Positions 2,376 to 44,301 of a stretch of 44,301 bases of DNA are shown in pieces (the stretch's first letter is position 1; each line of letters opens with the position of its first letter). The stretch lies in the IMG/VR virus record IMGVR_UViG_3300033997_000053. The stretch is one strand, 5' to 3'. The stretch comes from a virus. Position numbers and translations under genes: made by a program. A model generated the notes under the pieces. The model searched no databases and was not told the DNA's origin. It was given only the letters and a program-made list of their open reading frames with translations.

Positions 2376-2561
2376 ATGAGCCAACAGATTCAACTGACAA
2401 CGCGCGAGGCGGTGGAGGAAGCGCTAGAGGCTCTCAACTACCGGCACGAAACAGCCAGGACAGATGAAAAACAGGAAAAGACACTGAAGGCAGCTCAGCT
2501 GCTCTGCGACCTCTACGGCTTCAAGCTGGAGCAGTTCTTTGTCGATGGCGACGAACTGTAA
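2376..2561 (+). CDS. hypothetical protein, 61 aa
   Basis: agagga precedes ATG 2376 (ATG 2370 is also possible). Product begins MSQQIQLTTREAVEEALEAL. Confidence 0.55.
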   Translation: MSQQIQLTTREAVEEALEALNYRHETARTDEKQEKTLKAAQLLCDLYGFKLEQFFVDGDEL

Positions 2562-2566
2562 AAAAG

Positions 2567-2609
2567 CCGACGAACGGTAGCCAAGAATCCTAGCCACTGT
2601 GGCACATTA
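2567..2609 (+). promoter_or_regulatory. Promoter-like site 1 carrying the CCGACGAACGGTAG upstream motif
   Basis: Motif at 2567-2580 and CACATT at 2603-2608. The leader carries aaagggga before GTG 2636. A near-copy, GACGAACTGTA, lies 21 bp upstream at 2548-2558. Confidence 0.55.
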
Positions 2610-2635
2610 GAGGCACTGAAACGAAAGGGGAAACA

Positions 2636-2797
2636 GTGAAATACGTTTACGCATCAGCAACTGTAATCGGCGCATGCTTTGCAGGCGTCTTTTTGCTTGA
2701 CACGAACCCAAAGCAGGCTATGGTCCTGGCAATACTCCAGATTGTTGCCATCCTGCTAGTTCTGTGCTTTGAGAAGGTTTTGGAGGTGAAGATATGA
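2636..2797 (+). CDS. small membrane protein, 53 aa, GTG start (below the ORF-track cutoff)
   Basis: Hand translation gives (M)KYVYASATVIGACFAGVFLLDTNPKQAMVLAILQIVAILLVLCFEKVLEVKI. Its stop overlaps the next ATG (ATGA at 2794-2797). Confidence 0.5.
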   Translation: MKYVYASATVIGACFAGVFLLDTNPKQAMVLAILQIVAILLVLCFEKVLEVKI

Positions 2798-3195: not shown

Positions 3196-3437
3196 TGAAG
3201 CAAGAATACGCATTCCCGCAGTCGTTGCAGGCGGGTGATATGGCTCAGTCAACTGGAGGGCTCACGCTACGCGACTATTTCGCTGCGCAGGCATTGCCCG
3301 CTGTGTACGTTGAGGCATGCAAGGAAATGGACAAAACTGGATATCCAGAGCATTGGAAAAAAGGCGTGGCTTTGGATGCATACGCCATGGCCGACGCCAT
3401 GCTCGCAGAGCGCGCGAAAGGTGCGTCCAATGGTTGA
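3192..3437 (+). CDS. hypothetical protein, 81 aa
   Basis: Track ORF. Contains the GLTLRDYFAAQALPA motif common in small phage proteins. Confidence 0.6.
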   Translation: MMKQEYAFPQSLQAGDMAQSTGGLTLRDYFAAQALPAVYVEACKEMDKTGYPEHWKKGVALDAYAMADAMLAERAKGASNG

Positions 3438-3915
3438 GCTAAAAACGACCTGCGGAACTACTTTCCTTGTTGACGAAGACATTGCGGAAACGATGGGGCG
3501 CTTTGCTTGGAAGCTCGATAAGGATGGATACGTTATCCGGAAAACGACGGTTAATGGGAGGCGCGGTATGACCGTGCGATTGCATCGTGCAGTGATGTCG
3601 TGCACCGACCCAAGAGTGCTGATAGATCATCGAGACGGCAATAAGCTCAACAACATGCGCGGCAATCTTCGGGAAGCAACGCGAAGCCAGAACGGGCAAA
3701 ACGGATTTAAAAGAAAAAACAGAGCATCCGTGTTTCGCGGCGTCACTTGGCACAAAAGATGCGGGAAGTGGCAGGCCAGCATCAAGGCGTTTGGGCGGAG
3801 CATTTACCTTGGACTGTTCGATGATGAACATGAGGCCGGCCACGCCTATAACCGCGCAGCCATAGAGAGACACGGAGAGTTTGCGCGACTTAACCCTGTA
3901 GGGAGAAAGGCATGA
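3430..3915 (+). CDS. HNH endonuclease with AP2-type domain (161 aa)
   Basis: ATG 3430 in the frame of track ORF 3235..3915. Contains LHRAVM...IDHRDGNKLNNMRGNLREAT (HNH) and FRGVTWHKRCGKWQASI...LGLFDDEHEAGHAYNRAA (AP2). Confidence 0.85.
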   Translation: MVELKTTCGTTFLVDEDIAETMGRFAWKLDKDGYVIRKTTVNGRRGMTVRLHRAVMSCTDPRVLIDHRDGNKLNNMRGNLREATRSQNGQNGFKRKNRASVFRGVTWHKRCGKWQASIKAFGRSIYLGLFDDEHEAGHAYNRAAIERHGEFARLNPVGRKA

Positions 3916-25666: not shown

Positions 25667-25963
25667 GTGCCTTGGAGAGATCCGAACAACTGGCTTCGCG
25701 CCGAATTACTCGCTCCGCTTTTGTCTTTTGTTTTGGCTCTCTTCAGGACAGTTTATGACGAAAAGGAACCTCGGTGGGTTAGGAGGCTTACTGAGGCCGC
25801 GATGTGCGGAATGATTACTTTGTCTGCTGGATATGGAATTGATGCCATGGGCCTGGCTGGCGAGTGGAAGTACGCCGCAGCCGGTGCAATTGGTTTTTTG
25901 GGTGCCGACTACATCCGAACTGTTGCAAAGAAGTTTGTTGGTAGAAAGATAGAACCAAAATGA
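25667..25963 (+). CDS. holin-like membrane protein, GTG start
   Basis: gggag lies 6 nt before GTG 25667. 98 aa with hydrophobic segments and a basic C-terminus, upstream of the endolysin. Confidence 0.6.
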   Translation: MPWRDPNNWLRAELLAPLLSFVLALFRTVYDEKEPRWVRRLTEAAMCGMITLSAGYGIDAMGLAGEWKYAAAGAIGFLGADYIRTVAKKFVGRKIEPK

Positions 25964-26169
25964 AACATCACATTTTTAAAATCGCCTCGGTCGTGCTCGG
26001 CGTCATTTTGGTTTACACCCTTTCAACCGAAAATCAACGCTTGGAAGCGCGGGTGATTGGCGTCACGGCGCAGTGTGCTAATGGATCGTTCACAACCGCC
26101 AAGCGCGGCCCGGGGGTTTGCTCTGCGCATGGCGGCGTGCAGCGCTGGATTGAAAAGCGAGGTCAGTGA
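25960..26169 (+). CDS. membrane-anchored DUF3761-like protein, 69 aa
   Basis: An N-terminal TM helix followed by CANGSFTTAKRGPGVCSAHGGVQRW (C.(D/N)G..S....G.CS.HGGV..W pattern). Confidence 0.55.
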   Translation: MKHHIFKIASVVLGVILVYTLSTENQRLEARVIGVTAQCANGSFTTAKRGPGVCSAHGGVQRWIEKRGQ

Positions 26170-26645
26170 TGGACTTTGACACAGCATTCGACCGGCTGAT
26201 TGGTCATGAGGGCGGGTATAGCAACCACCCTGCCGACCCAGGTGGTGAAACCATGTGGGGCGTTACAGCACGGGTGGCGCGCGCAAATGGCTACACAGGG
26301 CCGATGAAAGATATGCCGCGCTCCACGGCCAAGGCCATCTACCGCAGGCTATATTGGGATGCAGTGAAGGCCGACCAATTGCCAGAGGTTGTGCGCTTTG
26401 ATGTGTTTGACGGTGCAGTGAATTCTGGCGTGGCTCAATCGGCGAAGTGGTTACAGCGCGCGGCTGGTGTTGCTGACGATGGCGTGATTGGGTCAAAGAC
26501 GATTGCCGCTGCGTCCGCTGCAGGCCCGGTCATCGCGGCCAGATACAACGGCCACCGCCTGGAATTCATGGCGAGCCTTCCCACCTGGCCGTCGTTTGGC
26601 AAAGGCTGGGCGCGCCGTATTGCATCGAACCTGAAAGGCGGTTGA
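26169..26645 (+). CDS. endolysin, GH108-type muramidase with PG-binding domain
   Basis: Contains FDRLIGHEGGYSNHPADPGGETMWGVT and DDGVIGSKTIAA...WPSFGKGWARR. ATG 26169 is coupled to the upstream gene (TGATG). Confidence 0.9.
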   Translation: MDFDTAFDRLIGHEGGYSNHPADPGGETMWGVTARVARANGYTGPMKDMPRSTAKAIYRRLYWDAVKADQLPEVVRFDVFDGAVNSGVAQSAKWLQRAAGVADDGVIGSKTIAAASAAGPVIAARYNGHRLEFMASLPTWPSFGKGWARRIASNLKGG

Positions 26646-27276: not shown

Positions 27277-27301
27277 GAAAAGCCCCATTGCGGGGCTTTT
27301 T
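27277..27301. terminator. bidirectional intrinsic terminator between the convergent arms
   Basis: aaaagcccc attgc ggggcttttt, with an A-run and a T-run flanking the stem. Confidence 0.8.
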
Positions 27302-27846: not shown

Positions 27847-27919
27847 ATTTCCCCTTTCGTGTTGCTTCATTTTACCACTAACCCACTGATTTTGCTTATA
27901 AATCAGACTGTTTGCATGC

Positions 27920-27962
27920 ATTCTGCGCCTGAATCAAGCGCCCGTCAACTGCCGTTCGTCGG
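27920..27962 (-). promoter_or_regulatory. Promoter-like site 4 with the CCGACGAACGGCAG motif
   Basis: On the - strand: motif (27962-27949), TTGACG (27948-27943), 17-nt spacer, CAGAAT (27925-27920). Confidence 0.65.
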
Positions 27963-29958: not shown

Positions 29959-30171
29959 CTATTCCTGATCTAACTCTTCAAACATGTCCAAAGTCTCATC
30001 CTGGCGCGCTGGCTTCTTTCTAACCTGCGCTAGAGTGATTGCACCTAGCCCGCGCTTTGCTGGCGCAATCAAATTGTGCTTGCGCGCACATGTAGGGCCT
30101 ACAGGCAAGCTGCCAACGTACACAGCCGCTGAAAACATGACACGGCCACACATCGCGCAGTACAGCTTCAT
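29959..30171 (-). CDS. hypothetical Cys-containing protein, 70 aa
   Basis: Track ORF with a CAMCG...PTC pattern. Confidence 0.55.
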   Translation of the reverse strand: MKLYCAMCGRVMFSAAVYVGSLPVGPTCARKHNLIAPAKRGLGAITLAQVRKKPARQDETLDMFEELDQE

Positions 30172-30404
30172 TTCGCAATTCTCCAGACCTTAGCCAATCC
30201 GCCGTCAGTCTCGATCTTCCCGAAGTCCTTAAGGCTGCGCACGCACCAGGTCACGTTGGCGCGCTGCGCTCCAATGCGTTCGTGCAACTGCGCAACAGTC
30301 GCAGGCCCTTCATGCTCCAGCACGTACATGATGGCTATTTTTAGCGCGTCACTGCTCCATGCTACGCGCCGCTGTTTTTCTTGCTGATTCCGTGCGGCTT
30401 CCAT
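30168..30404 (-). CDS. winged-helix DNA-binding protein candidate, 78 aa
   Basis: ILEHEGPATVAQLHERIGAQRANVTWCVRSLKDFGKIE resembles a MarR-like wHTH. Confidence 0.55.
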   Translation of the reverse strand: MEAARNQQEKQRRVAWSSDALKIAIMYVLEHEGPATVAQLHERIGAQRANVTWCVRSLKDFGKIETDGGLAKVWRIAK

Positions 30405-30781: not shown

Positions 30782-30806
30782 TCAATTCCCCTTGTTGTTG
30801 ATGATG

Positions 30807-30850
30807 ATAGTGTCGCTGCATTTTCATTTACTAGCAACACCGTTCGTCGG
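30807..30850 (-). promoter_or_regulatory. Promoter-like site 5 with the CCGACGAACGGTG motif
   Basis: On the - strand: motif (30850-30838), TTGCTA (30837-30832), 18-19 nt spacer, CACTAT (30812-30807). Confidence 0.55.
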
Positions 30851-33361: not shown

Positions 33362-33389
33362 AACTCCCCCTTTGCAGCGTCATGTGGAT

Positions 33390-33432
33390 ACTGTAGCCGC
33401 CGCGCTTGGCTTTGGCTACTACCGTTCGTCGG
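33390..33432 (-). promoter_or_regulatory. Promoter-like site 6 with the CCGACGAACGGTAG motif
   Basis: On the - strand: motif (33432-33419), TAGCCA (33418-33413), 17-nt spacer, TACAGT (33395-33390). Confidence 0.6.
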
Positions 33433-33447
33433 GTTTTTTAGGCTATC

Positions 33448-34827
33448 TCAGATTCCGTAATCGCCGTTTGACTTCTTGTGCTTTGCGGGTTCGCTTAACT
33501 TCTCGTCTGTGTCGTGCCATTGTTGGTATTTGCCAACAAACCTAACACCAAAAGAGCCTTTGGCACCGCCTCGATTCTTCATCACATCAAACCCAATGAG
33601 CGTGCTGCTATCCCCGACTTCGTGAGGCCACATACCAATGATGGCGTCTGCATCCTCTTCGATGGCTCCAGATTCCTTGAGGTCGGCCATGATAGGGCGT
33701 GGCGGCGTGCGCTTTTCGACTTCGCGGTTTAGCTGGGATAGCAAAAGTATCGGGATTTCCAGCTCCTTTGCCAAAACCTTGATGCCTCGGCTGATTTCTT
33801 CGATCTGGTGGTGCCTCGACAGTCTAGGGTTCACGGATTGGCAAAGCTGCAAGTAATCAATAGCCAGCAACCTAAGACCATGTTTCCGCTTTAACACCCG
33901 CGCATGCGATGCAATGTCGGCCAAACGCAGTCCAGCCTGGTCGAACAGGAACAAAGGTATCTGGCTGGCAATGGCCGCTGCGTCAAGCGCATGATTGAAT
34001 TGCTCACTATCTCCAATCGGCTTGTTGTGAAACACCATGCTTACGCCGCCAATTCGAGAAATAGCACGATCAACCATTTCTTCGTTCGTCATTTCTTGAG
34101 AGAACATCGCAGCAGGCATTCCTGCACGTGCAGCGGTTTCTGCTGAGGCCTGGGCTATTGCTGACTTACCAACAGATGGTCGCGCGGCAATCACGTAAAC
34201 CTTGCCATTTCGCCATCCACCGTTAAGCAACTCGTCCAGCTTTTGAACTCCGGTAGAGATTGCATCGACTTGTTCTCCATCTGAATAGCGTTGGAGCTTG
34301 TCTAGATACCCTGGTATCAATGTGCCGATAAGAACCGGCGCGCGACCTGAACTAGACTGCTGCGCAACCGTGTCAAGCATCGCAACAATGCGCGCAAGTC
34401 GATCTGAAACTTTACAAGTCTGGTCTGTAGCTTGCTCAAATGCATTGTTGATCGCTGACACCAGCGCGCGCTCTTTAGCCTTCTCGCAAACAGAATCAGC
34501 ATACTTCATCAGCATGGATGACGTCGCGCCATGCTGTGCAATTTGGCTTAATTCAGCAATCGTAATGTCGTTGTTCGGATTGGTTCTTTCCAAGTCCTCG
34601 TAAACAGTGATTACGTCACAACGGCTACCGCTCCCGATTGCCTTCGCAATTGATGCGTAAACCTTCTGCCCGATGGTTGTGGAAAAGTGCTCAGTACGCA
34701 AAAAAGGCGCAACCCTATCGTACTGGTCGTTGTTCATCAAAAGAACCGCCAGCACGCCGTATTCGGCCTGTATGGACCATTGTTCCATGTAGTCTGCGGA
34801 TTCGTATTCTTGTTCTTCAAACATCAT
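33448..34827 (-). CDS. dnaB: replicative DNA helicase
   Basis: 459 aa. Contains IAARPSVGKSAIA (Walker A), LLAIDYLQL, and SQLNREVEKR...DLKESGAIEEDAD. Confidence 0.95.
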   Translation of the reverse strand: MMFEEQEYESADYMEQWSIQAEYGVLAVLLMNNDQYDRVAPFLRTEHFSTTIGQKVYASIAKAIGSGSRCDVITVYEDLERTNPNNDITIAELSQIAQHGATSSMLMKYADSVCEKAKERALVSAINNAFEQATDQTCKVSDRLARIVAMLDTVAQQSSSGRAPVLIGTLIPGYLDKLQRYSDGEQVDAISTGVQKLDELLNGGWRNGKVYVIAARPSVGKSAIAQASAETAARAGMPAAMFSQEMTNEEMVDRAISRIGGVSMVFHNKPIGDSEQFNHALDAAAIASQIPLFLFDQAGLRLADIASHARVLKRKHGLRLLAIDYLQLCQSVNPRLSRHHQIEEISRGIKVLAKELEIPILLLSQLNREVEKRTPPRPIMADLKESGAIEEDADAIIGMWPHEVGDSSTLIGFDVMKNRGGAKGSFGVRFVGKYQQWHDTDEKLSEPAKHKKSNGDYGI

Positions 34828-35561
34828 GTGCCCTTAGCTCGCTTTGCTTCAAAAGCAGACTTAAACATTTCCCCTGCGCTGGACAATTGCACAGTACCGT
34901 CCTTAACGTACCAGAACTTGTACCAGTTATCCTTCACGCAGTTGGCAAAAGTCTGCCCCCAGTCCTTGTACTTTTTCGACTTGCGCGCGCCTTCGGTGTG
35001 ATCTTCTTTGAACCTCACCCAACACAACCCAAACATATCCGAGGTAATGCCAGCATCTTGCGCATATTGACGGATTGGGTGGTTATCAGAAATTGGTTTG
35101 ACCCCTAGTTCGGCACATTCATCTAGATATGTCTGCAACACTCTCAGGCCAGAGGATTGGCGCTGCTTTGCTGCGCCTTTCTCTCTTACTGGTTCATTTC
35201 CTGGTTCATTTCCTGGTTCATTTCCTGATTCTGTAGCCACCTGCTGACCCACCGGGGTTTTTTGCAGGCTGGGGTGGGTCTGCAAAAAACCCACCCCAGC
35301 AGGGCAAAGCTCGTATTGGTTGGGTAGTTGCTGTCCTTCGTAAAACCTGGGGTGAACCTTCAAAAGACCAATCTCTGCAAGCTCCTTTAGTGCAGATTTT
35401 GTTGCAGATTCGCTTAGTCCACAATCTTCTGCCAGTGTCTTAATCTTTGGGATGCACTTGCCTGTGTCGCTGTTTACACGATTGGCAAGCATCAAAAGAA
35501 CAATCTTTTTAGTGGATGGAAGTTTTTGTTCTACCGCCCAGGACATTGCTTGAAAGCTCAT
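34824..35561 (-). CDS. replication initiator protein (N-terminal HTH, helicase-loader position)
   Basis: MSFQAMSWAVEQKLPSTKKIVLLMLANRVNSDTGKCIPKIKTLAEDCGLSESA is a wHTH. It is translationally coupled to dnaB and contains internal DNA repeats. Confidence 0.7.
   Translation of the reverse strand: MSFQAMSWAVEQKLPSTKKIVLLMLANRVNSDTGKCIPKIKTLAEDCGLSESATKSALKELAEIGLLKVHPRFYEGQQLPNQYELCPAGVGFLQTHPSLQKTPVGQQVATESGNEPGNEPGNEPVREKGAAKQRQSSGLRVLQTYLDECAELGVKPISDNHPIRQYAQDAGITSDMFGLCWVRFKEDHTEGARKSKKYKDWGQTFANCVKDNWYKFWYVKDGTVQLSSAGEMFKSAFEAKRAKGT
35189..35232. repeat. Perfect 12-bp tandem repeat ctggttcatttc x3 plus a partial fourth copy (iteron-like)
   Basis: Copies read directly at 35189-35200, 35201-35212 and 35213-35224. 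They encode NEPG x3 in the initiator linker. Confidence 0.9.
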
Positions 35562-37157: not shown

Positions 37158-37856
37158 TCAGTCTGCATTGCGCTTTTCAGTCTCAACCAGGGCGAAGCCT
37201 TCGGCGCGCAGCGCGGCCTCGATCTCTTCCATGCGCTCGTTCAGCTTTGCCATCTTCTGGCTCCACTCTGCGCCATCGGCAGTGATGCGCTTGAATTCGT
37301 CGCGCAGCGCGATTGGGTCAAACGCTTTATCTGCAGCGGCTTCTGCGTTCTCAATCACCTGATCGATGGTTTGCGCCATTGGCTTGTCCTGCTGTGGCTC
37401 TGCGTAGCGCCATTGCATGATGTCGCCTGGGCTACTCTCCAAAGTCCAGCGCAAGCCATCAGAGGCCGTACCTTTGATTACCTTTCCACTACGCATCCTG
37501 AACTCAATACGCGCTCCATCAGCCACAGGCGGCGTCTTGCGCCCACGGTTGCGCCGCCATGGGTTGGCAGGCTTGTCCACTACCGCCGCAATCTCAGGAT
37601 CGCGCGCTGGCTGGATGCTGTCAAGGTAGGATGCGCGGGCGAATTGCCATTCCGCGCGTGTTACTCCACGATCAGGCGCTTGCTTTGCAAACTGTCTTAC
37701 ATGGTCATAACATAGATCAGACAAAAATCCACCAGATTCAGATGGTTTGTTGTCTCTCAAAACAAAAACCAATTCTTTATCATGATCCTGAAAAGCATAA
37801 ATAGCTTCATTAGGCCATTCAGTCAGCTCGCGCGCCAAAATATCTACCAATTTCAT
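37158..37856 (-). CDS. hypothetical protein, 232 aa
   Basis: Track ORF; coding looks plausible and it is tightly packed with neighbours. Confidence 0.6.
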   Translation of the reverse strand: MKLVDILARELTEWPNEAIYAFQDHDKELVFVLRDNKPSESGGFLSDLCYDHVRQFAKQAPDRGVTRAEWQFARASYLDSIQPARDPEIAAVVDKPANPWRRNRGRKTPPVADGARIEFRMRSGKVIKGTASDGLRWTLESSPGDIMQWRYAEPQQDKPMAQTIDQVIENAEAAADKAFDPIALRDEFKRITADGAEWSQKMAKLNERMEEIEAALRAEGFALVETEKRNAD

Positions 37857-37857
37857 C

Positions 37858-38040
37858 TTAGTTCCCCTTTGTCAAAGTGCCGTGCTTAATGCGCGCTTGT
37901 TTTGCTGCATCGGCTTTTGCAGCAGCGCCGGAAGTGATAACGATGTGCTGGTTAGGATTCAATTTAACCGGGCGTTCCGGAGGTTGTCGAGTACCGCTCA
38001 TCAGGGATTTAGCCGGAATGTCGAAAGCGTAGCGGGTCAT
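37858..38040 (-). CDS. hypothetical protein, 60 aa
   Basis: Track ORF, coupled to its neighbours. Confidence 0.5.
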   Translation of the reverse strand: MTRYAFDIPAKSLMSGTRQPPERPVKLNPNQHIVITSGAAAKADAAKQARIKHGTLTKGN

Positions 38041-38225
38041 TGCTTGTCTTTCATCTTGGGTTTGTGAGCTTTGATCGCTAGAGCGATGGCTATGGATGTG
38101 CTGGTGAATGGTGCATGCCCAGACTTGATGCGCGTGAGGGTGCGCCTGGGGATGCCGCTTTTGCGCGAGAACTCATTCAGGTTCTCAATGCGCCGGATGG
38201 TTTCGACTGTGTTCATGGGCTGCAT
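38037..38225 (-). CDS. small HTH DNA-binding protein (Cro-like position), 62 aa
   Basis: LNEFSRKSGIPRRTLTRIKSG is an HTH. It is the first gene of the leftward arm, and no SD is visible before its ATG. Confidence 0.65.
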   Translation of the reverse strand: MQPMNTVETIRRIENLNEFSRKSGIPRRTLTRIKSGHAPFTSTSIAIALAIKAHKPKMKDKQ

Positions 38226-38335
38226 TGTGCATGGCTAAATTGCCACGGCAAGGCATAGCCAAGTGGCGCATGTGGGTATTTGCGTTTTGTGCTGGATGGA
38301 TGCTACATTGGAGCCATCACAACAAAGGGGAAGCA
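38226..38335. promoter_or_regulatory. Divergent control region between the leftward and rightward arms
   Basis: Palindrome TTGCCACGGCAA at 38240-38251. Rightward candidate TTGCGT (38280-38285), 18-nt spacer, TACATT (38304-38309). Leftward candidate TTGGCT, 17-nt spacer, TTTAGC. The CCGACGAACGG motif is absent. Confidence 0.5.
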
Positions 38336-38812
38336 ATGTATCCAACACGCAAACCAATACCGGCGCATCACACAAACGCGCTGGCTATGCAGGCACGCAG
38401 CGCAGTGCATCGCCTGGCCGAAGCGAAAGAGCCGCGCATAGAAGCTGTGCGCACGTTGTTTGATTTTGTCAACATGGGAGAGACTTTCATTACCCACAAC
38501 GGCGGCGTATGGAAAGGCTGCGACTTGAAGCCAACGCCGCTAGAAGATGATGATGGGCTAATCAAGACAGGCATTCAAACGCTCGGCGCGATGTGGAATG
38601 AAGGCCTGCGCACCAAGCAACCGATGCGACTTGATGATAAGGGCGCGCAAGAGCTTCTCGACCTGATTGATTGTGTCGAGGAAATCATGCTTTTCTTGCC
38701 ACACAGCGAAGTGCATAAGTGCATGAACATTACCGCTCGTCGGATAAAACTTGTCTTAGCTGGGCGCGTTGGAGAGAATGACATTGTTATCAAAGCAGGG
38801 GAAAGCAAATGA
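38336..38812 (+). CDS. hypothetical protein, 158 aa
   Basis: aaagggga precedes ATG 38336, in the frame of track ORF 38225..38812. Confidence 0.6.
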   Translation: MYPTRKPIPAHHTNALAMQARSAVHRLAEAKEPRIEAVRTLFDFVNMGETFITHNGGVWKGCDLKPTPLEDDDGLIKTGIQTLGAMWNEGLRTKQPMRLDDKGAQELLDLIDCVEEIMLFLPHSEVHKCMNITARRIKLVLAGRVGENDIVIKAGESK

Positions 38813-39159
38813 GATACTACACAGCGAATCCAGAGGTTGACGCAGCGAATTGGATGGATGACCAGGACGCGTTTGATACGGCCAACGAAGCATCCGAAAA
38901 GCGCGCCTACGATGTAATCCTTGCCGAATTCAAGGCACTGAAGCCAACACAGTGGCACCACCATCTCATGTCGAGCGCGATGTATCCCGACGAATCGCTC
39001 ATTGCGTACATGGGAAGCTCGGACGTGTACACGAAGTTTGCCGAACTGATGGCAAGCCCCGCAGCGCATGGATTGCTTGAAGAACTGGCGCGCGCTGTAG
39101 CCAAAGACCACCACTGGACAATCTGCCCGCTGGAGAAGCCAGACAATGAACCCGTTTGA
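38809..39159 (+). CDS. hypothetical protein, 116 aa
   Basis: Track ORF with ATGA coupling. Confidence 0.6.
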   Translation: MRYYTANPEVDAANWMDDQDAFDTANEASEKRAYDVILAEFKALKPTQWHHHLMSSAMYPDESLIAYMGSSDVYTKFAELMASPAAHGLLEELARAVAKDHHWTICPLEKPDNEPV

Positions 39160-39583: not shown

Positions 39584-39626
39584 CCGACGAACGGTAGCCC
39601 ATGGCGCACAACATGGGCTACATTAG
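39584..39626 (+). promoter_or_regulatory. Promoter-like site 2 with the CCGACGAACGGTAG motif
   Basis: Motif at 39584-39597, inverted repeat cccatg...catggg in the spacer, TACATT at 39619-39624. The leader carries aagggga before ATG 39652. Confidence 0.55.
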
Positions 39627-39651
39627 AAGCTCACAAACACAAGGGGAAAAC

Positions 39652-42504: not shown

Positions 42505-42819
42505 ATGGCGCGCACGAAGTCGTGCACGCAGATCGCGGCTTACTATGGCGTTCACTCTGACCTTATCCGGCGCTGGCTGTGGCGGCGCGGAATCACTGCT
42601 GTAAAGCACGTTGAAACCATCAACACCAAGACAAAATCGGAAAACAAACACACAATCCAAGAATCAGTCAAAAACGCGCCCGTTGTCTGGCCTAAGTCAG
42701 TAAAGGTGCAAGTCATGCAGCGCGACCCACGCTATGACCAGTGGCGCGAGGAATACGACCCAAAGAAGCACGGCGGCGCGAGTGGGCAGGCTCCGGCGCG
42801 GGCGTTTAAACAGCATTGA
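42505..42819 (+). CDS. HTH-containing hypothetical protein, 104 aa
   Basis: CTQIAAYYGVHSDLIRRWLWRRG is HTH-like. Confidence 0.5.
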   Translation: MARTKSCTQIAAYYGVHSDLIRRWLWRRGITAVKHVETINTKTKSENKHTIQESVKNAPVVWPKSVKVQVMQRDPRYDQWREEYDPKKHGGASGQAPARAFKQH

Positions 42820-42831
42820 TGGAGAATGAAA

Positions 42832-43188
42832 ATGGCAAATGATCGTGAACTGCTGGAGCTGGCGGCAAAGACTTTGGAGCTAAACCTGTACAAAGCAGAT
42901 TCAAATGATGGTGGAGGATTTTATTTGTACAAAGATACGCCGTCAGGAAACAAAGAATTAACAGCCTGGAATCCTTTGGAAGAAGACGGCGACTGCGCGC
43001 GCATGGAGGCTGACGTGGGAATCAACCTGGAATGGGGAACCGATTTCGTTTGCGCGATTGACTTGGATGGCAATGAGGTGTGTGAATACTTCAAAGACCA
43101 CAACGGCGACAAGCAAGCAGCGCGCCGCATGGCAAGCCTGCGAGTAGCCTCAGACATTGGCCGCGCCATGCAATCCGACAAACGGTAG
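42832..43188 (+). CDS. hypothetical protein, 118 aa
   Basis: ggag lies 8 nt before ATG 42832 (42826 is also possible). Its stop TAG is part of the site-3 motif. Confidence 0.6.
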   Translation: MANDRELLELAAKTLELNLYKADSNDGGGFYLYKDTPSGNKELTAWNPLEEDGDCARMEADVGINLEWGTDFVCAIDLDGNEVCEYFKDHNGDKQAARRMASLRVASDIGRAMQSDKR

Positions 43189-43217
43189 TTGCCACTGCAT
43201 CAGATCAGTGGCACATT
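43175..43217 (+). promoter_or_regulatory. Promoter-like site 3 with the CCGACAAACGGTAG variant motif
   Basis: Motif at 43175-43188, TTGCCA at 43189-43194, 17-nt spacer containing gccactg...cagtggc, CACATT at 43212-43217. Confidence 0.6.
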
Positions 43218-43249: not shown

Positions 43250-43426
43250 ATGAAGAACCCAGACTACTTCAATCCCGACCACTTTGCCAAAGGCGAGTCC
43301 GTCAGCTACGGCGATTTCAAAGGGTCAATCGTGCGCCATTACTACGAAGGCATGTGGGAGGTGCGCCTTCCTGGTGGGATCGCATGCGTTAGCGGTTCGC
43401 AACTTCGCCGGATTCAACCAGCCTAA
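43250..43426 (+). CDS. hypothetical protein, 58 aa (below the ORF-track cutoff)
   Basis: Hand translation gives MKNPDYFNPDHFAKGESVSYGDFKGSIVRHYYEGMWEVRLPGGIACVSGSQLRRIQPA. aggag lies upstream. Confidence 0.5.
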   Translation: MKNPDYFNPDHFAKGESVSYGDFKGSIVRHYYEGMWEVRLPGGIACVSGSQLRRIQPA

Positions 43427-43490: not shown

Positions 43491-44301
43491 ATGGAAAAAA
43501 CTTGCACAGGATGCGTAGTGAGCGCAGCGACGTACAAGCCAGCAGAGGCTGTGCACCAGAGTCACGAGCCGCAGACGAAAAAAACTGAGGCGCTGAGTTT
43601 GGCGGATTGGTTAACCCAAGGTGGGTGGCCATCTTATGTGCCGCAGGAAGCAGCCGCCGAACTGCTCCGCCTGCATGCCGAGAACGAGGCGCTGAAGAAG
43701 CAGATGGCAGCAGCACCGCAGGCAGTGCAGGCCGCCGTGCCGGAAGCAATTGAGCAGATGGCTGTAGATAGATACAAAGTCGTTCCGTCACACGAAAGCA
43801 TGTTCCATCGCTGGGCTGTTGTTGCTGGCAACGGAACACAGCAGCTTTACATTGGGCGCGAGGGTGAATGCCAGAACATGGCTCGAAAGTTCATGGGTGC
43901 GTTCTTGGACGGCGCATTTGTGGCCATGCAAAACGCCGCCCCCGCGCACCCCGCAGAGGGAGTGCCAGCGCAGGCCGTGGCAGTGGCAGATGCGCGTTCG
44001 GCGCGCCAAATTACGGACGCAATTGTGGAAAACTTCAAAGATGCCGGATGGTATGTGCCGTCCGTCGATGAAGCGCTAGTGCTGGAGGCTGTAAGTGCCG
44101 CTATCGTTGAGCATGGCGCTAGTGAACCGCTGACTGGCGTTGCCAGTGACGTTGACTCAATGGCTCGCGTGTTGATGGCCGCTTTTTCCAAGGCGGAGCC
44201 AGAGCACCCCATTACTCGGTATCCGACAAGTTTCGTGGCTACCTTCGCTGACATGGCCCGCGCTGCCCTTGCCGCCACCCAGCCAGCAGCGCAGGGGATG
44301 G
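43491..44301 (+). CDS. 5' part of a hypothetical protein gene that runs off the window end and continues at 1..264
   Basis: aaggggga precedes ATG 43491. I translated the frame by hand to 44301 without meeting a stop. It is absent from the ORF track because no stop lies inside the window. Confidence 0.7.
   Translation, partial: MEKTCTGCVVSAATYKPAEAVHQSHEPQTKKTEALSLADWLTQGGWPSYVPQEAAAELLRLHAENEALKKQMAAAPQAVQAAVPEAIEQMAVDRYKVVPSHESMFHRWAVVAGNGTQQLYIGREGECQNMARKFMGAFLDGAFVAMQNAAPAHPAEGVPAQAVAVADARSARQITDAIVENFKDAGWYVPSVDEALVLEAVSAAIVEHGASEPLTGVASDVDSMARVLMAAFSKAEPEHPITRYPTSFVATFADMARAALAATQPAAQGM
44199..44301. repeat. Terminal direct repeat, identical to 1-103
   Basis: Direct comparison of the two window ends. 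Confidence 0.95.

Follow-up and report, generated by a model that had tools for sequence, protein, structure and literature searches.

The DNA studied here, IMG/VR virus record IMGVR_UViG_3300033997_000053 (44,301 nucleotides, called the window below), carries a repeated 14-mer, CCGACGAACGG, next to six putative promoters. Judging from its sequence, this 14-mer is probably a box bound by a LytTR response regulator of the AlgR type. The regulator is most likely a host protein and would activate these six promoters. We infer AlgR binding, activation, the transcription starts and the host identity alike. Phage promoters that depend on a host factor are known as a kind, and AlgR-type boxes in such promoters appear to be new. 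Full-text literature searches, by motif string and by AlgR in combination with phage promoters, gave no earlier account of such boxes in the genome of a phage.

The 14-mer was found as an exact copy at 2567 (+), 39584 (+), 27962 (-), 30850 (-) and 33432 (-), and with one mismatch at 43175 (+) (CCGACAAACGG) and 38743 (-) (CCGACGAGCGG). Seven sites with at most one mismatch compare with 0.48 expected, and none of 100 shuffles reached seven. The core 9-mer GACGAACGG, or GACGAACGG(T) with a further T, is present exactly five times against 0.41 expected. Six copies are intergenic or at gene ends and co-oriented with the flanking genes. An earlier note on this DNA had listed these six sites, with this placement, and all were recovered at the same positions; the copy at 38743 was not in its list. 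That copy (CCGACGAGCGGTAA, 38730-38743, -) lies antisense in the open reading frame (ORF) 38333-38812, with no convincing -35 or -10 after it. It is kept in two related contigs (L001 and L032, see below), yet this is coding sequence and its function is doubtful. The symmetry of the outer triplets (CCG-N5-CGG), which the same note had put forward as a feature, is probably a coincidence, since neither the conserved core nor the published site that it matches is symmetric.

This published site is bound by AlgR, which belongs to the LytTR family and is the response regulator in the AlgZ(FimS)/AlgR system of Pseudomonas aeruginosa. Its core consensus, CCGTTCGTC, was set by footprinting and confirmed by ChIP-seq (PMC4064291; PMC4787818). 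The phage core GACGAACGG is the reverse complement of this 9-bp consensus. Read on the reverse complement, the window thus holds five exact predicted AlgR cores and one variant of the RB3 type, since the reverse complement of the 43175 copy contains CCGTTTGTC, the sequence of algD-RB3. In algD, RB3 is a site of lower affinity centred at -45; its orientation is the reverse of that of RB1 and RB2, and algD is not fully transcribed without it (PMC4064291). AlgR sites function in either orientation (PMC4064291). They also tolerate single changes in the core, for example CCGTTTGTC or CCGTTCATC. RB1 and RB2 presumably share the extended 10-mer ACCGTTCGTC, and this would also explain the conserved T after GG.

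Among known systems, algD-RB3 is the closest in both sequence and position. The 9-bp core is the same, the 43175 copy being identical to RB3 and the other five corresponding to the high-affinity consensus, and in both cases a single box stands near -44/-45, just upstream of the -35 position. The two differ in that algD also needs far-upstream sites, whereas the phage promoters have a single box except at 2567. Also, algD uses an alternative sigma factor, while the phage promoters look sigma-70-type.

Indeed, all six sites are followed, 21-23 nt after the 14-mer, by a hexamer of the form nAnAnT (CACATT, TACATT, CACATT, CAGAAT, GACACT and TACAGT at 2567, 39584, 43175, 27962, 30850 and 33432, respectively), so that 24-26 nt separate the box core from the -10. 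With a 17-nt spacer, the corresponding -35 hexamers are GCCAAG and AGCCCA, both poor, then TTGCCA, TTGACG, TTGCTA and TAGCCA, giving an acceptable -35 at four of the six putative promoters. The -35 starts exactly at the end of the 14-mer or overlaps its last one or two bases, which places the centre of the box near -44. The ribosome-binding site (RBS) is AAGGGGA or AAGGGGG at five sites and GGAG at 43175. The RBS types and the quality of the -35 hexamers had been described in the same terms before, and the geometry turned out to be tighter than described. The -10 hexamers proposed earlier were also found again, save at 30850, where the relatives keep a GACACT/AAACT-type hexamer and not CACTAT. 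As for the A/T-rich tract said to precede the core, what stands there is a short A-rich run. A UP element was rejected, the box itself being 64% G+C. As first proposed, the motif does behave as an upstream element that sets a class of promoters apart; it occupies about -49 to -36, and an activator-type position is the most natural reading. A generic sigma-70 scan recovered P27962 only among the box promoters and gave promoter-like sites no more numerous than in shuffles; weak promoters associated with a box would thus be easily missed by such a scan.

On the rightward strand, P2567 (2548..2608, +) contains the main box CCGACGAACGGTAG at 2567-2580, the -35 GCCAAG at 2580-2585 and the -10 CACATT at 2603-2608, followed by an RBS at 2625-2631 and a GTG start at 2636. 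It has the worst -35 of the six and is the sole promoter of the window with a second box, the degenerate GCGACGAACTGTAA (2548-2561, +). This near-copy starts 19 bp before the main copy, start to start, and not 21 bp as first reported. P2567 is preceded by a strong terminator (1938-1964) and is the sole candidate promoter for the structural and lysis genes, a 25-kb operon (2636-27204). P39584 (39584..39624, +) has the box CCGACGAACGGTAG at 39584-39597, the -35 AGCCCA and the -10 TACATT (39619-39624); an RBS (39641-39647), an ATG (39652) and then the RecT and exonuclease genes follow. In P43175 (43175..43217, +), the variant box CCGACAAACGGTAG overlaps the end of ORF 42826-43188 and is followed by the -35 TTGCCA (43189-43194), the -10 CACATT (43212-43217) and an ATG at 43250.

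On the leftward strand, P27962 (27920..27962, -) has its box CCGACGAACGGCAG (27949-27962) directly after an intrinsic terminator, with the -35 TTGACG at 27943-27948, the -10 CAGAAT at 27920-27925 and an RBS at 27850-27856. The box of P30850 (30809..30850, -), CCGACGAACGGTGT at 30837-30850, adjoins the stop codon of NinB; its -35 is TTGCTA (30832-30837), its -10 GACACT (30809-30814) and its RBS lies at 30787-30793. The box of P33432 (33390..33432, -), CCGACGAACGGTAG at 33419-33432, starts 15 nt past the stop codon of DnaB and precedes the -35 TAGCCA (33413-33418), the -10 TACAGT (33390-33395) and an RBS (33366-33372). The motif-less rightward early promoter of the divergent control region, TTGCGT-17-TACATT (38281..38309, +), was also confirmed.

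Inverted repeats were observed in the -35/-10 spacer of three box promoters, GCCAC-T-GTGGC at 2592-2602, CCCATG-N8-CATGGG at 39598-39617 and GCCACTG-N9-CAGTGGC at 43191-43213. The second of these reads CTCATG-N8-CATGAG in L001 (6424-6443) and L032, a compensated double change. Elsewhere, a spacer stem of at least 5 bp is present in 22% of 37 box-adjacent promoter-like sites, versus 6.6% in shuffles (n = 300; highest shuffle, 19%).

Hundreds of unrelated contigs, viral and metagenomic, also carry the box, with its phase to the -35 and -10 unchanged. When IMG/VR was searched for exact copies of the 14-mer, at least 120 contigs were matched, essentially none of them related to the window; one of those listed, L040, has a stretch of about 600 nt within the RecT gene that is 70% identical to the window. 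Counts in this paragraph are among the matches listed. For 118-120 exact 14-mers, TTGAC stands at offset 0 from the box in 10-11 cases and at offset 10 in 6, where chance predicts about 0.1 per offset. As in the window, TTG directly follows the box in 25 of 120 and an A is found at -2 in 69 of 120. In a pool of viral, metagenomic and GenBank sequences with 272 distinct boxes close to promoters, TAnAnT peaked at offsets 21-22 and 32-34, and -35-like hexamers at offsets 0 and 9-10. The six promoters of the window fall in the first phase class (TAnAnT at 21-22), and in the second class, seen in other phages, the box lies one helical turn farther upstream. This geometry would fit an activator site, for which a centre at about -41 to -45 on a fixed helical face is expected, along with activity that depends on the activator. 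Also, where unrelated phages and metagenomes have neighbouring boxes on the same strand, the distance is exactly 21 bp in 15 of 18 cases, and in other contigs tandem boxes replace a missing -35 before good TATAAT hexamers. LytTR regulators bind two repeats of 9-11 nt separated by 11-13 nt (PMC4847170), a repeat length and gap that correspond to the 21-bp period of the tandem boxes.

The GenBank phages that carry the box nearly all infect Pseudomonas, Xanthomonas, Xylella or Stenotrophomonas. A short-BLAST search of 50,697 GenBank phages with the box followed by TTGACG matched 29 records, mostly in intergenic positions; 20 are Pseudomonas phages, and the others include phages of Xylella, Xanthomonas, Stenotrophomonas and Ralstonia. 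With the query reversed as a control, 6 scattered matches were obtained, four within annotated coding genes and two in unannotated records. Xylella phage MATE2 has three box promoters in 1.1 kb, one of which, TTGACG-17-CAGAAT, has the hexamers of P27962. Pseudomonas phage UFV-P2 (genus Vicosavirus) has the box in its left end, where the sequence is non-coding. Two Autographiviridae phages also carry it: in Kurepalu-1, a T7-type phage of P. putida, it stands ahead of TAGACA-17-GATACT in the non-coding stretch before the early genes, and in Ulina01 it is upstream of gene 1 near the left end. The early region of T7-like phages is transcribed first by the host polymerase, and if this applies here, no phage protein would be available for binding the box.

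Two further arrangements were observed in these unrelated sequences. In Xanthomonas phage pXoo2107 (L161, about 235-264), an inverted pair CCGTTCATC-gac-CCGACGAACGG, preceded by a terminator, stands directly before TTGACA-17-ACAATA, and its left half CCGTTCATC is the AlgR variant of the czcR/rhlI type. A perfect DnaA box TTATCCACA adjoins the AlgR-type box in five unrelated viral contigs (L045 at 324-370, L078 at about 4800, L107 at about 4830, L121 at about 3725 and L149 at about 5595), compared with about 0.1 expected, and it lies exactly at the -35 position in two of them. Megablast of three unrelated box-bearing contigs gave no useful matches.

Metagenomes were scanned with the pattern GACGAACGGT-N11-GACGAACGGT, and counts again apply among the matches listed. 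Many GACGAACGGT matches with the 21-nt period were in-frame heptad repeats (VDERF...) coding for coiled-coil-like proteins (L173, L176, L185, L192, L245, L276 and others), and these were set aside. The remaining loci were of three types. Many are phage-like promoters with 21-23 nt to TATAAT. At least 7 loci have tandem boxes 70-170 nt upstream of genes with a prepilin motif; in L200, the genes downstream are GspH/FimU-like, N_methyl/PilV-like, PilW and PilX. At the third type (L205, L226, L202), boxes lie within about 2 kb of a gene for a Response_reg+LytTR protein and upstream of acetyl-CoA synthetase or symporter-like genes. A tally of the first ORF downstream of the metagenome loci was crude and gave mostly noise. 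In the contigs of about 70% GC, tandem ACCGTTCGTC boxes are found at L205 3034-3064, L226 1396-1426, L202 118-148 and L255 594-624, and L172 shares identical flanking sequence with the L226 box region. The boxes of these contigs stand between the gene that follows the LytTR response-regulator gene and the acetyl-CoA synthetase/solute-symporter-like genes, which suggests that a different LytTR two-component system reads the same box there.

AlgR directly activates the minor-pilin operon fimU-pilVWXY1, where its sites in P. aeruginosa, CCGTTTGGC and CCCTCGGGC, are poor matches to the consensus. The likeness of the phage promoters to the fimU-pilVWXY1E operon lies in the same family of regulator and box, with perfect tandem boxes in the metagenomic bacterial contigs. 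The box orientation is opposite at the pilin operons, the distance to the gene start is greater and the genes are chromosomal and not those of a phage. Other LytTR-dependent promoters (AgrA at P2/P3, YpdB at yhjX, PlnC, ComE) have two repeats of 9-11 nt, 11-13 nt apart, before a weak -35. Promoters of unrelated phages and metagenomes have exactly this layout, with 21 bp start to start, but five of the six window promoters have a single box and the pair at P2567 is spaced by 19 bp.

Close relatives of the window, found among viral and Logan contigs (L001-L004 and L031-L033), are 80-100% identical to it in parts, and their boxes stand at the junctions where the window has them. After NinB (30850), L003, L004 and L032 keep the core unchanged but vary in the two final bases of the 14-mer, in the spacer and in the cassette downstream. 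The P33432 box is a mosaic junction in L004 and L032, in which an extra cassette follows DnaB (L004, 4579-7340; L032, 5016-8549) with a box promoter on either side; that of L032 encodes a DEAD-box helicase, an HNH protein and an N6/N4 methylase. These cassette swaps between boxes indicate that the boxes mark the boundaries of mosaic modules. In the next-nearest viral relative, L006, whose DnaB is 61% identical, we found neither the motif nor an obvious replacement motif. The gene of the 78-aa winged helix-turn-helix (wHTH) protein of the window (30168-30404; L032 10501-10752) is the first gene after the box promoter in L032.

Several observations weigh against a simple AlgR-dependent activation of the six promoters. 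The 39584 box reads CCGACAGACGG in L001 and L032, which amounts to two changes in the core, and the -10 is kept, so that P39584 may not strictly need its box. A tandem site of the LytTR type was not found in the window: the second box is a lone degenerate copy, present at P2567 only, at 19 bp start to start and not 21. The boxes of the pilin promoters are inverted (ACCGTTCGTC towards the gene) and farther from the -10. Also, the box-bearing contigs span 33-71% GC, which means that more than one subfamily of LytTR regulators may read the box, and in the bacteria of some contigs the neighbouring regulator controls acs/actP and not pili. The G+C content of the phage genome, 54%, is low for Pseudomonas. 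The regulator in the host of this phage may be an AlgR paralogue. Finally, AlgR can repress, for example rhlI, where its site is at -28, and rhlA.

This last point leads to a first alternative, which we consider improbable, namely that the boxes are AlgR-type sites at which the host regulator acts as a repressor or brake, gating phage development by the state of the host. Besides the known repression of rhlI and rhlA, four of the six promoters have an acceptable -35 and could work without an activator. Against it, the box stops where the -35 begins and leaves the -35, the spacer and the -10 uncovered, and perfect boxes are found at both promoters with the worst -35. Activation is preferred over repression because the box abuts the core promoter instead of covering it, because the second phase class, one helical turn upstream, is typical of activation from one face of the helix, and because tandem boxes elsewhere stand for a missing -35 ahead of TATAAT. 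A purely harmful site would also soon be lost, whereas the boxes are kept across the mosaic relatives.

Alternatively, a DNA-binding protein of the phage itself could read the motif and turn on middle or late promoters. The earlier note had named as candidates the wHTH protein (30168-30404) and the helix-turn-helix (HTH) proteins at 38037-38225 (Cro-like) and 42505-42819, with a host factor as its last option; an unannotated early protein could be added to this list. The window does encode several small HTH proteins, mosaic relatives keep the wHTH gene at 97-99% identity where the genes beside it are 55-75% identical, the motif-less early promoters would permit a cascade, and some early proteins have no family assignment (38333-38812, 38809-39159 and 37158-37856, for example). 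But the box keeps the same promoter position in unrelated phages, which leaves these candidates unsupported, and no homologue of them was found in the fragments fetched of 120 unrelated box-bearing viral contigs. Other proteins of the window (terminase, RecT, HNH and others) gave a few scattered matches in those contigs. The box is also present in early regions that the host RNA polymerase transcribes in Autographiviridae and upstream of bacterial pilin operons, it corresponds to an experimentally defined site of a host regulator (PMC4064291), and the wHTH gene is itself downstream of a box promoter. Taken together, a reader encoded by the phage seems quite unlikely. The host factor is favoured, in the form of a LytTR response regulator of the AlgR type, because the box occurs in unrelated phages, in T7-type early regions, in pilin operons and beside LytTR genes.

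The phage does not seem to bring such a regulator with it. No LytTR domain was found in about 48 window proteins by Pfam and PHROGs, which gave weak HTH, Rha/Ant and HNH families instead, and phmmer searches with AlgR and AgrA probes over all window ORFs and the viral contigs gave no match. The probes are validated by the bacterial ORFs they retrieved, which Pfam confirmed as Response_reg+LytTR.

Other types of promoter and activator were considered and set aside. A phage activator of the Mu Mor/C or T4 MotA type was rejected, since no such family appeared in the Pfam and PHROGs scans and the box is asymmetric and ends at -36. A promoter read by a phage RNA polymerase or sigma factor was likewise rejected, since no such gene family was matched and the box core lies 24-26 nt from the -10, where a conserved element within about 20 nt would be expected. 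A sigma-54 promoter was also rejected: at 2567, TGGCAC-N5-AGGCA compares with TGGCAC-N5-TTGCW, and elsewhere the GC is out of register or absent. In readings as sites for extracytoplasmic-function (ECF) sigma factors, sigma-28 or LexA, the spacing was wrong or half-sites were missing.

The middle and late promoters of Mu, activated by Mor and C, have an activator site at about -43.5 and a poor -35, and MotA boxes mark the middle promoters of T4. The window resembles these systems in having a promoter class marked by an activator site beside or in place of the -35, with the host sigma-70 polymerase used throughout. The differences are that Mor, C and MotA are encoded by the phage, that Mor/C sites are dyad-symmetric and MotA boxes centred at -30, whereas the box of the window is asymmetric and common to unrelated phages. 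Scans of the non-structural proteins of the window with Pfam and PHROGs found no homologue of Mor/C or MotA.

We regard as very unlikely that the 14-mer acts at the DNA level in a process other than transcription, be it as a recombination sequence, a module boundary or a replication iteron. It is true that boxes lie at mosaic junctions, with different cassettes between two boxes in L004 and L032, and that 21-bp tandem arrays and DnaA boxes TTATCCACA beside the motif occur in several unrelated contigs. Such a role would not lead one to expect the strict co-orientation with genes, nor a phase to the -35 and -10 that is strictly kept across hundreds of unrelated sequences; mosaic junctions at promoters arise naturally from short sequences common to modules, and the likely origin repeats of the phage are elsewhere (35186-35231). 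An RNA element, that is, a processing or antitermination site in read-through transcripts, is hardly credible: boxes do lie on the coding strand right after stop codons, and a hairpin-capable inverted repeat follows three sites, one with a compensated change in relatives, but no Rfam family matched, the hairpins are unlike in sequence and missing at three sites, the conserved flanks are -35 and -10 hexamers at the spacing of DNA promoters, and the same 10-mer is inverted ahead of the pilin genes, which is consistent with a DNA site but not with an RNA motif.

The window is the genome of a tailed phage, whose host is probably a Pseudomonas-like gammaproteobacterium. An exact terminal repeat of 103 bp (1-103 = 44199-44301) and an ORF of 323 codons that spans the junction (43491 to 264), and is thus split by the window ends, indicate a complete, circularly permuted genome of 44,198 bp. 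The rightward gene arm runs from 38333 across the junction to 27204 and includes the genes for RecT (39863), the exonuclease (41136), the large terminase (5757), the portal (7341), the capsid (11778), the sheath (15025) and, near 25667-26645, the holin and endolysin. The leftward arm (38225 to 27301) encodes the Cro-like HTH protein (38037-38225), a Rha/Ant protein, a replication protein, DnaB (33448-34827), NinB, NinG and a dUTPase, and a bidirectional terminator at 27281-27300 ends both arms. No RNA polymerase or sigma factor family was matched among the window proteins by Pfam and PHROGs (the largest ORF has 565 aa), and tRNA and Rfam searches of the window gave no match.

Megablast found no close DNA-level relative among GenBank phages, and the large terminase is at most 48% identical to that of any of them. 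Pseudomonas phages have the major capsid proteins most like that of the window (65.6% identity for Amjad_SA, a phage of P. alcaligenes, and 62% for P. syringae phages) and account for 299 of 551 matches. Amjad_SA has a single box, followed by TGGCGT-17-CATAAT. A scan of a genome collection for the box with ACATTAG gave 2 matches, about the chance number, both in metagenome-assembled genomes of uncultured members of the Acidobacteriaceae and Candidatus Oxydemutatoraceae, and revealed no prophage relative.

Other features of the genome were observed. Three to four tandem copies of a 12-bp unit, TTCCTGGTTCAT, lie at 35186-35231 inside the replication gene 34824-35561, where they encode GNEP repeats; by analogy with lambda O, they may be origin iterons within an initiator gene. 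The region 1029-2327 is 1.3 kb without a convincing ORF, contains a terminator with a 12-bp stem (1938-1964) and is kept in L002 in patches only. Two genes for HNH_3-type endonucleases, 549-1028 and 3235-3915, the second also with an AP2 domain, are likely homing endonucleases, and their homologues are dispersed over related and unrelated contigs.

In the most likely scheme, the phage relies on the host RNA polymerase alone, and the 14-mer is a box for a host AlgR-like regulator. Immediate-early transcription would start from the motif-less divergent promoters near 38226-38332. This regulator would occupy about -49 to -36, where the non-template strand carries GACGAACGG, contact RNA polymerase and help to activate six further sigma-70-type promoters. 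P39584 would drive the recombination operon and P43175 a small downstream unit, P33432, P30850 and P27962 would re-start transcription along the leftward Nin-like arm in three units, and P2567 would serve the whole structural and lysis operon.

As a tentative extension, phages of pilus-bearing Proteobacteria (Pseudomonas, Xanthomonadales and others) might widely wire their promoters to FimS-AlgR surface sensing, with AlgR boxes set at a fixed phase to the -35 and -10, either singly or in 21-bp pairs. In this phage, the recombination, Nin-region, virion and lysis operons might then fire only in AlgR-active cells, where type IV pili, a common phage receptor, are made. A preprint reports that an algR deletion strain is phage-resistant independently of CRISPR, an observation confounded by the fact that the phage uses the pilus.

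Promoter classes of phages are usually explained by factors that the phage encodes, and here such a class, to which the sole visible promoter of the late genes belongs, appears tied to a two-component regulator of the host, one that controls type IV pili, alginate and virulence. If true, the development of phages in Pseudomonas-like hosts would be coupled to surface sensing and to the state of the envelope. Mutants in algR could then block phages after adsorption, which bears on phage therapy of mucoid and non-mucoid isolates from cystic fibrosis. The box would also provide a host clue from sequence for uncultivated phages, and the unit of box and -10 would make a compact AlgR-responsive promoter for synthetic biology.

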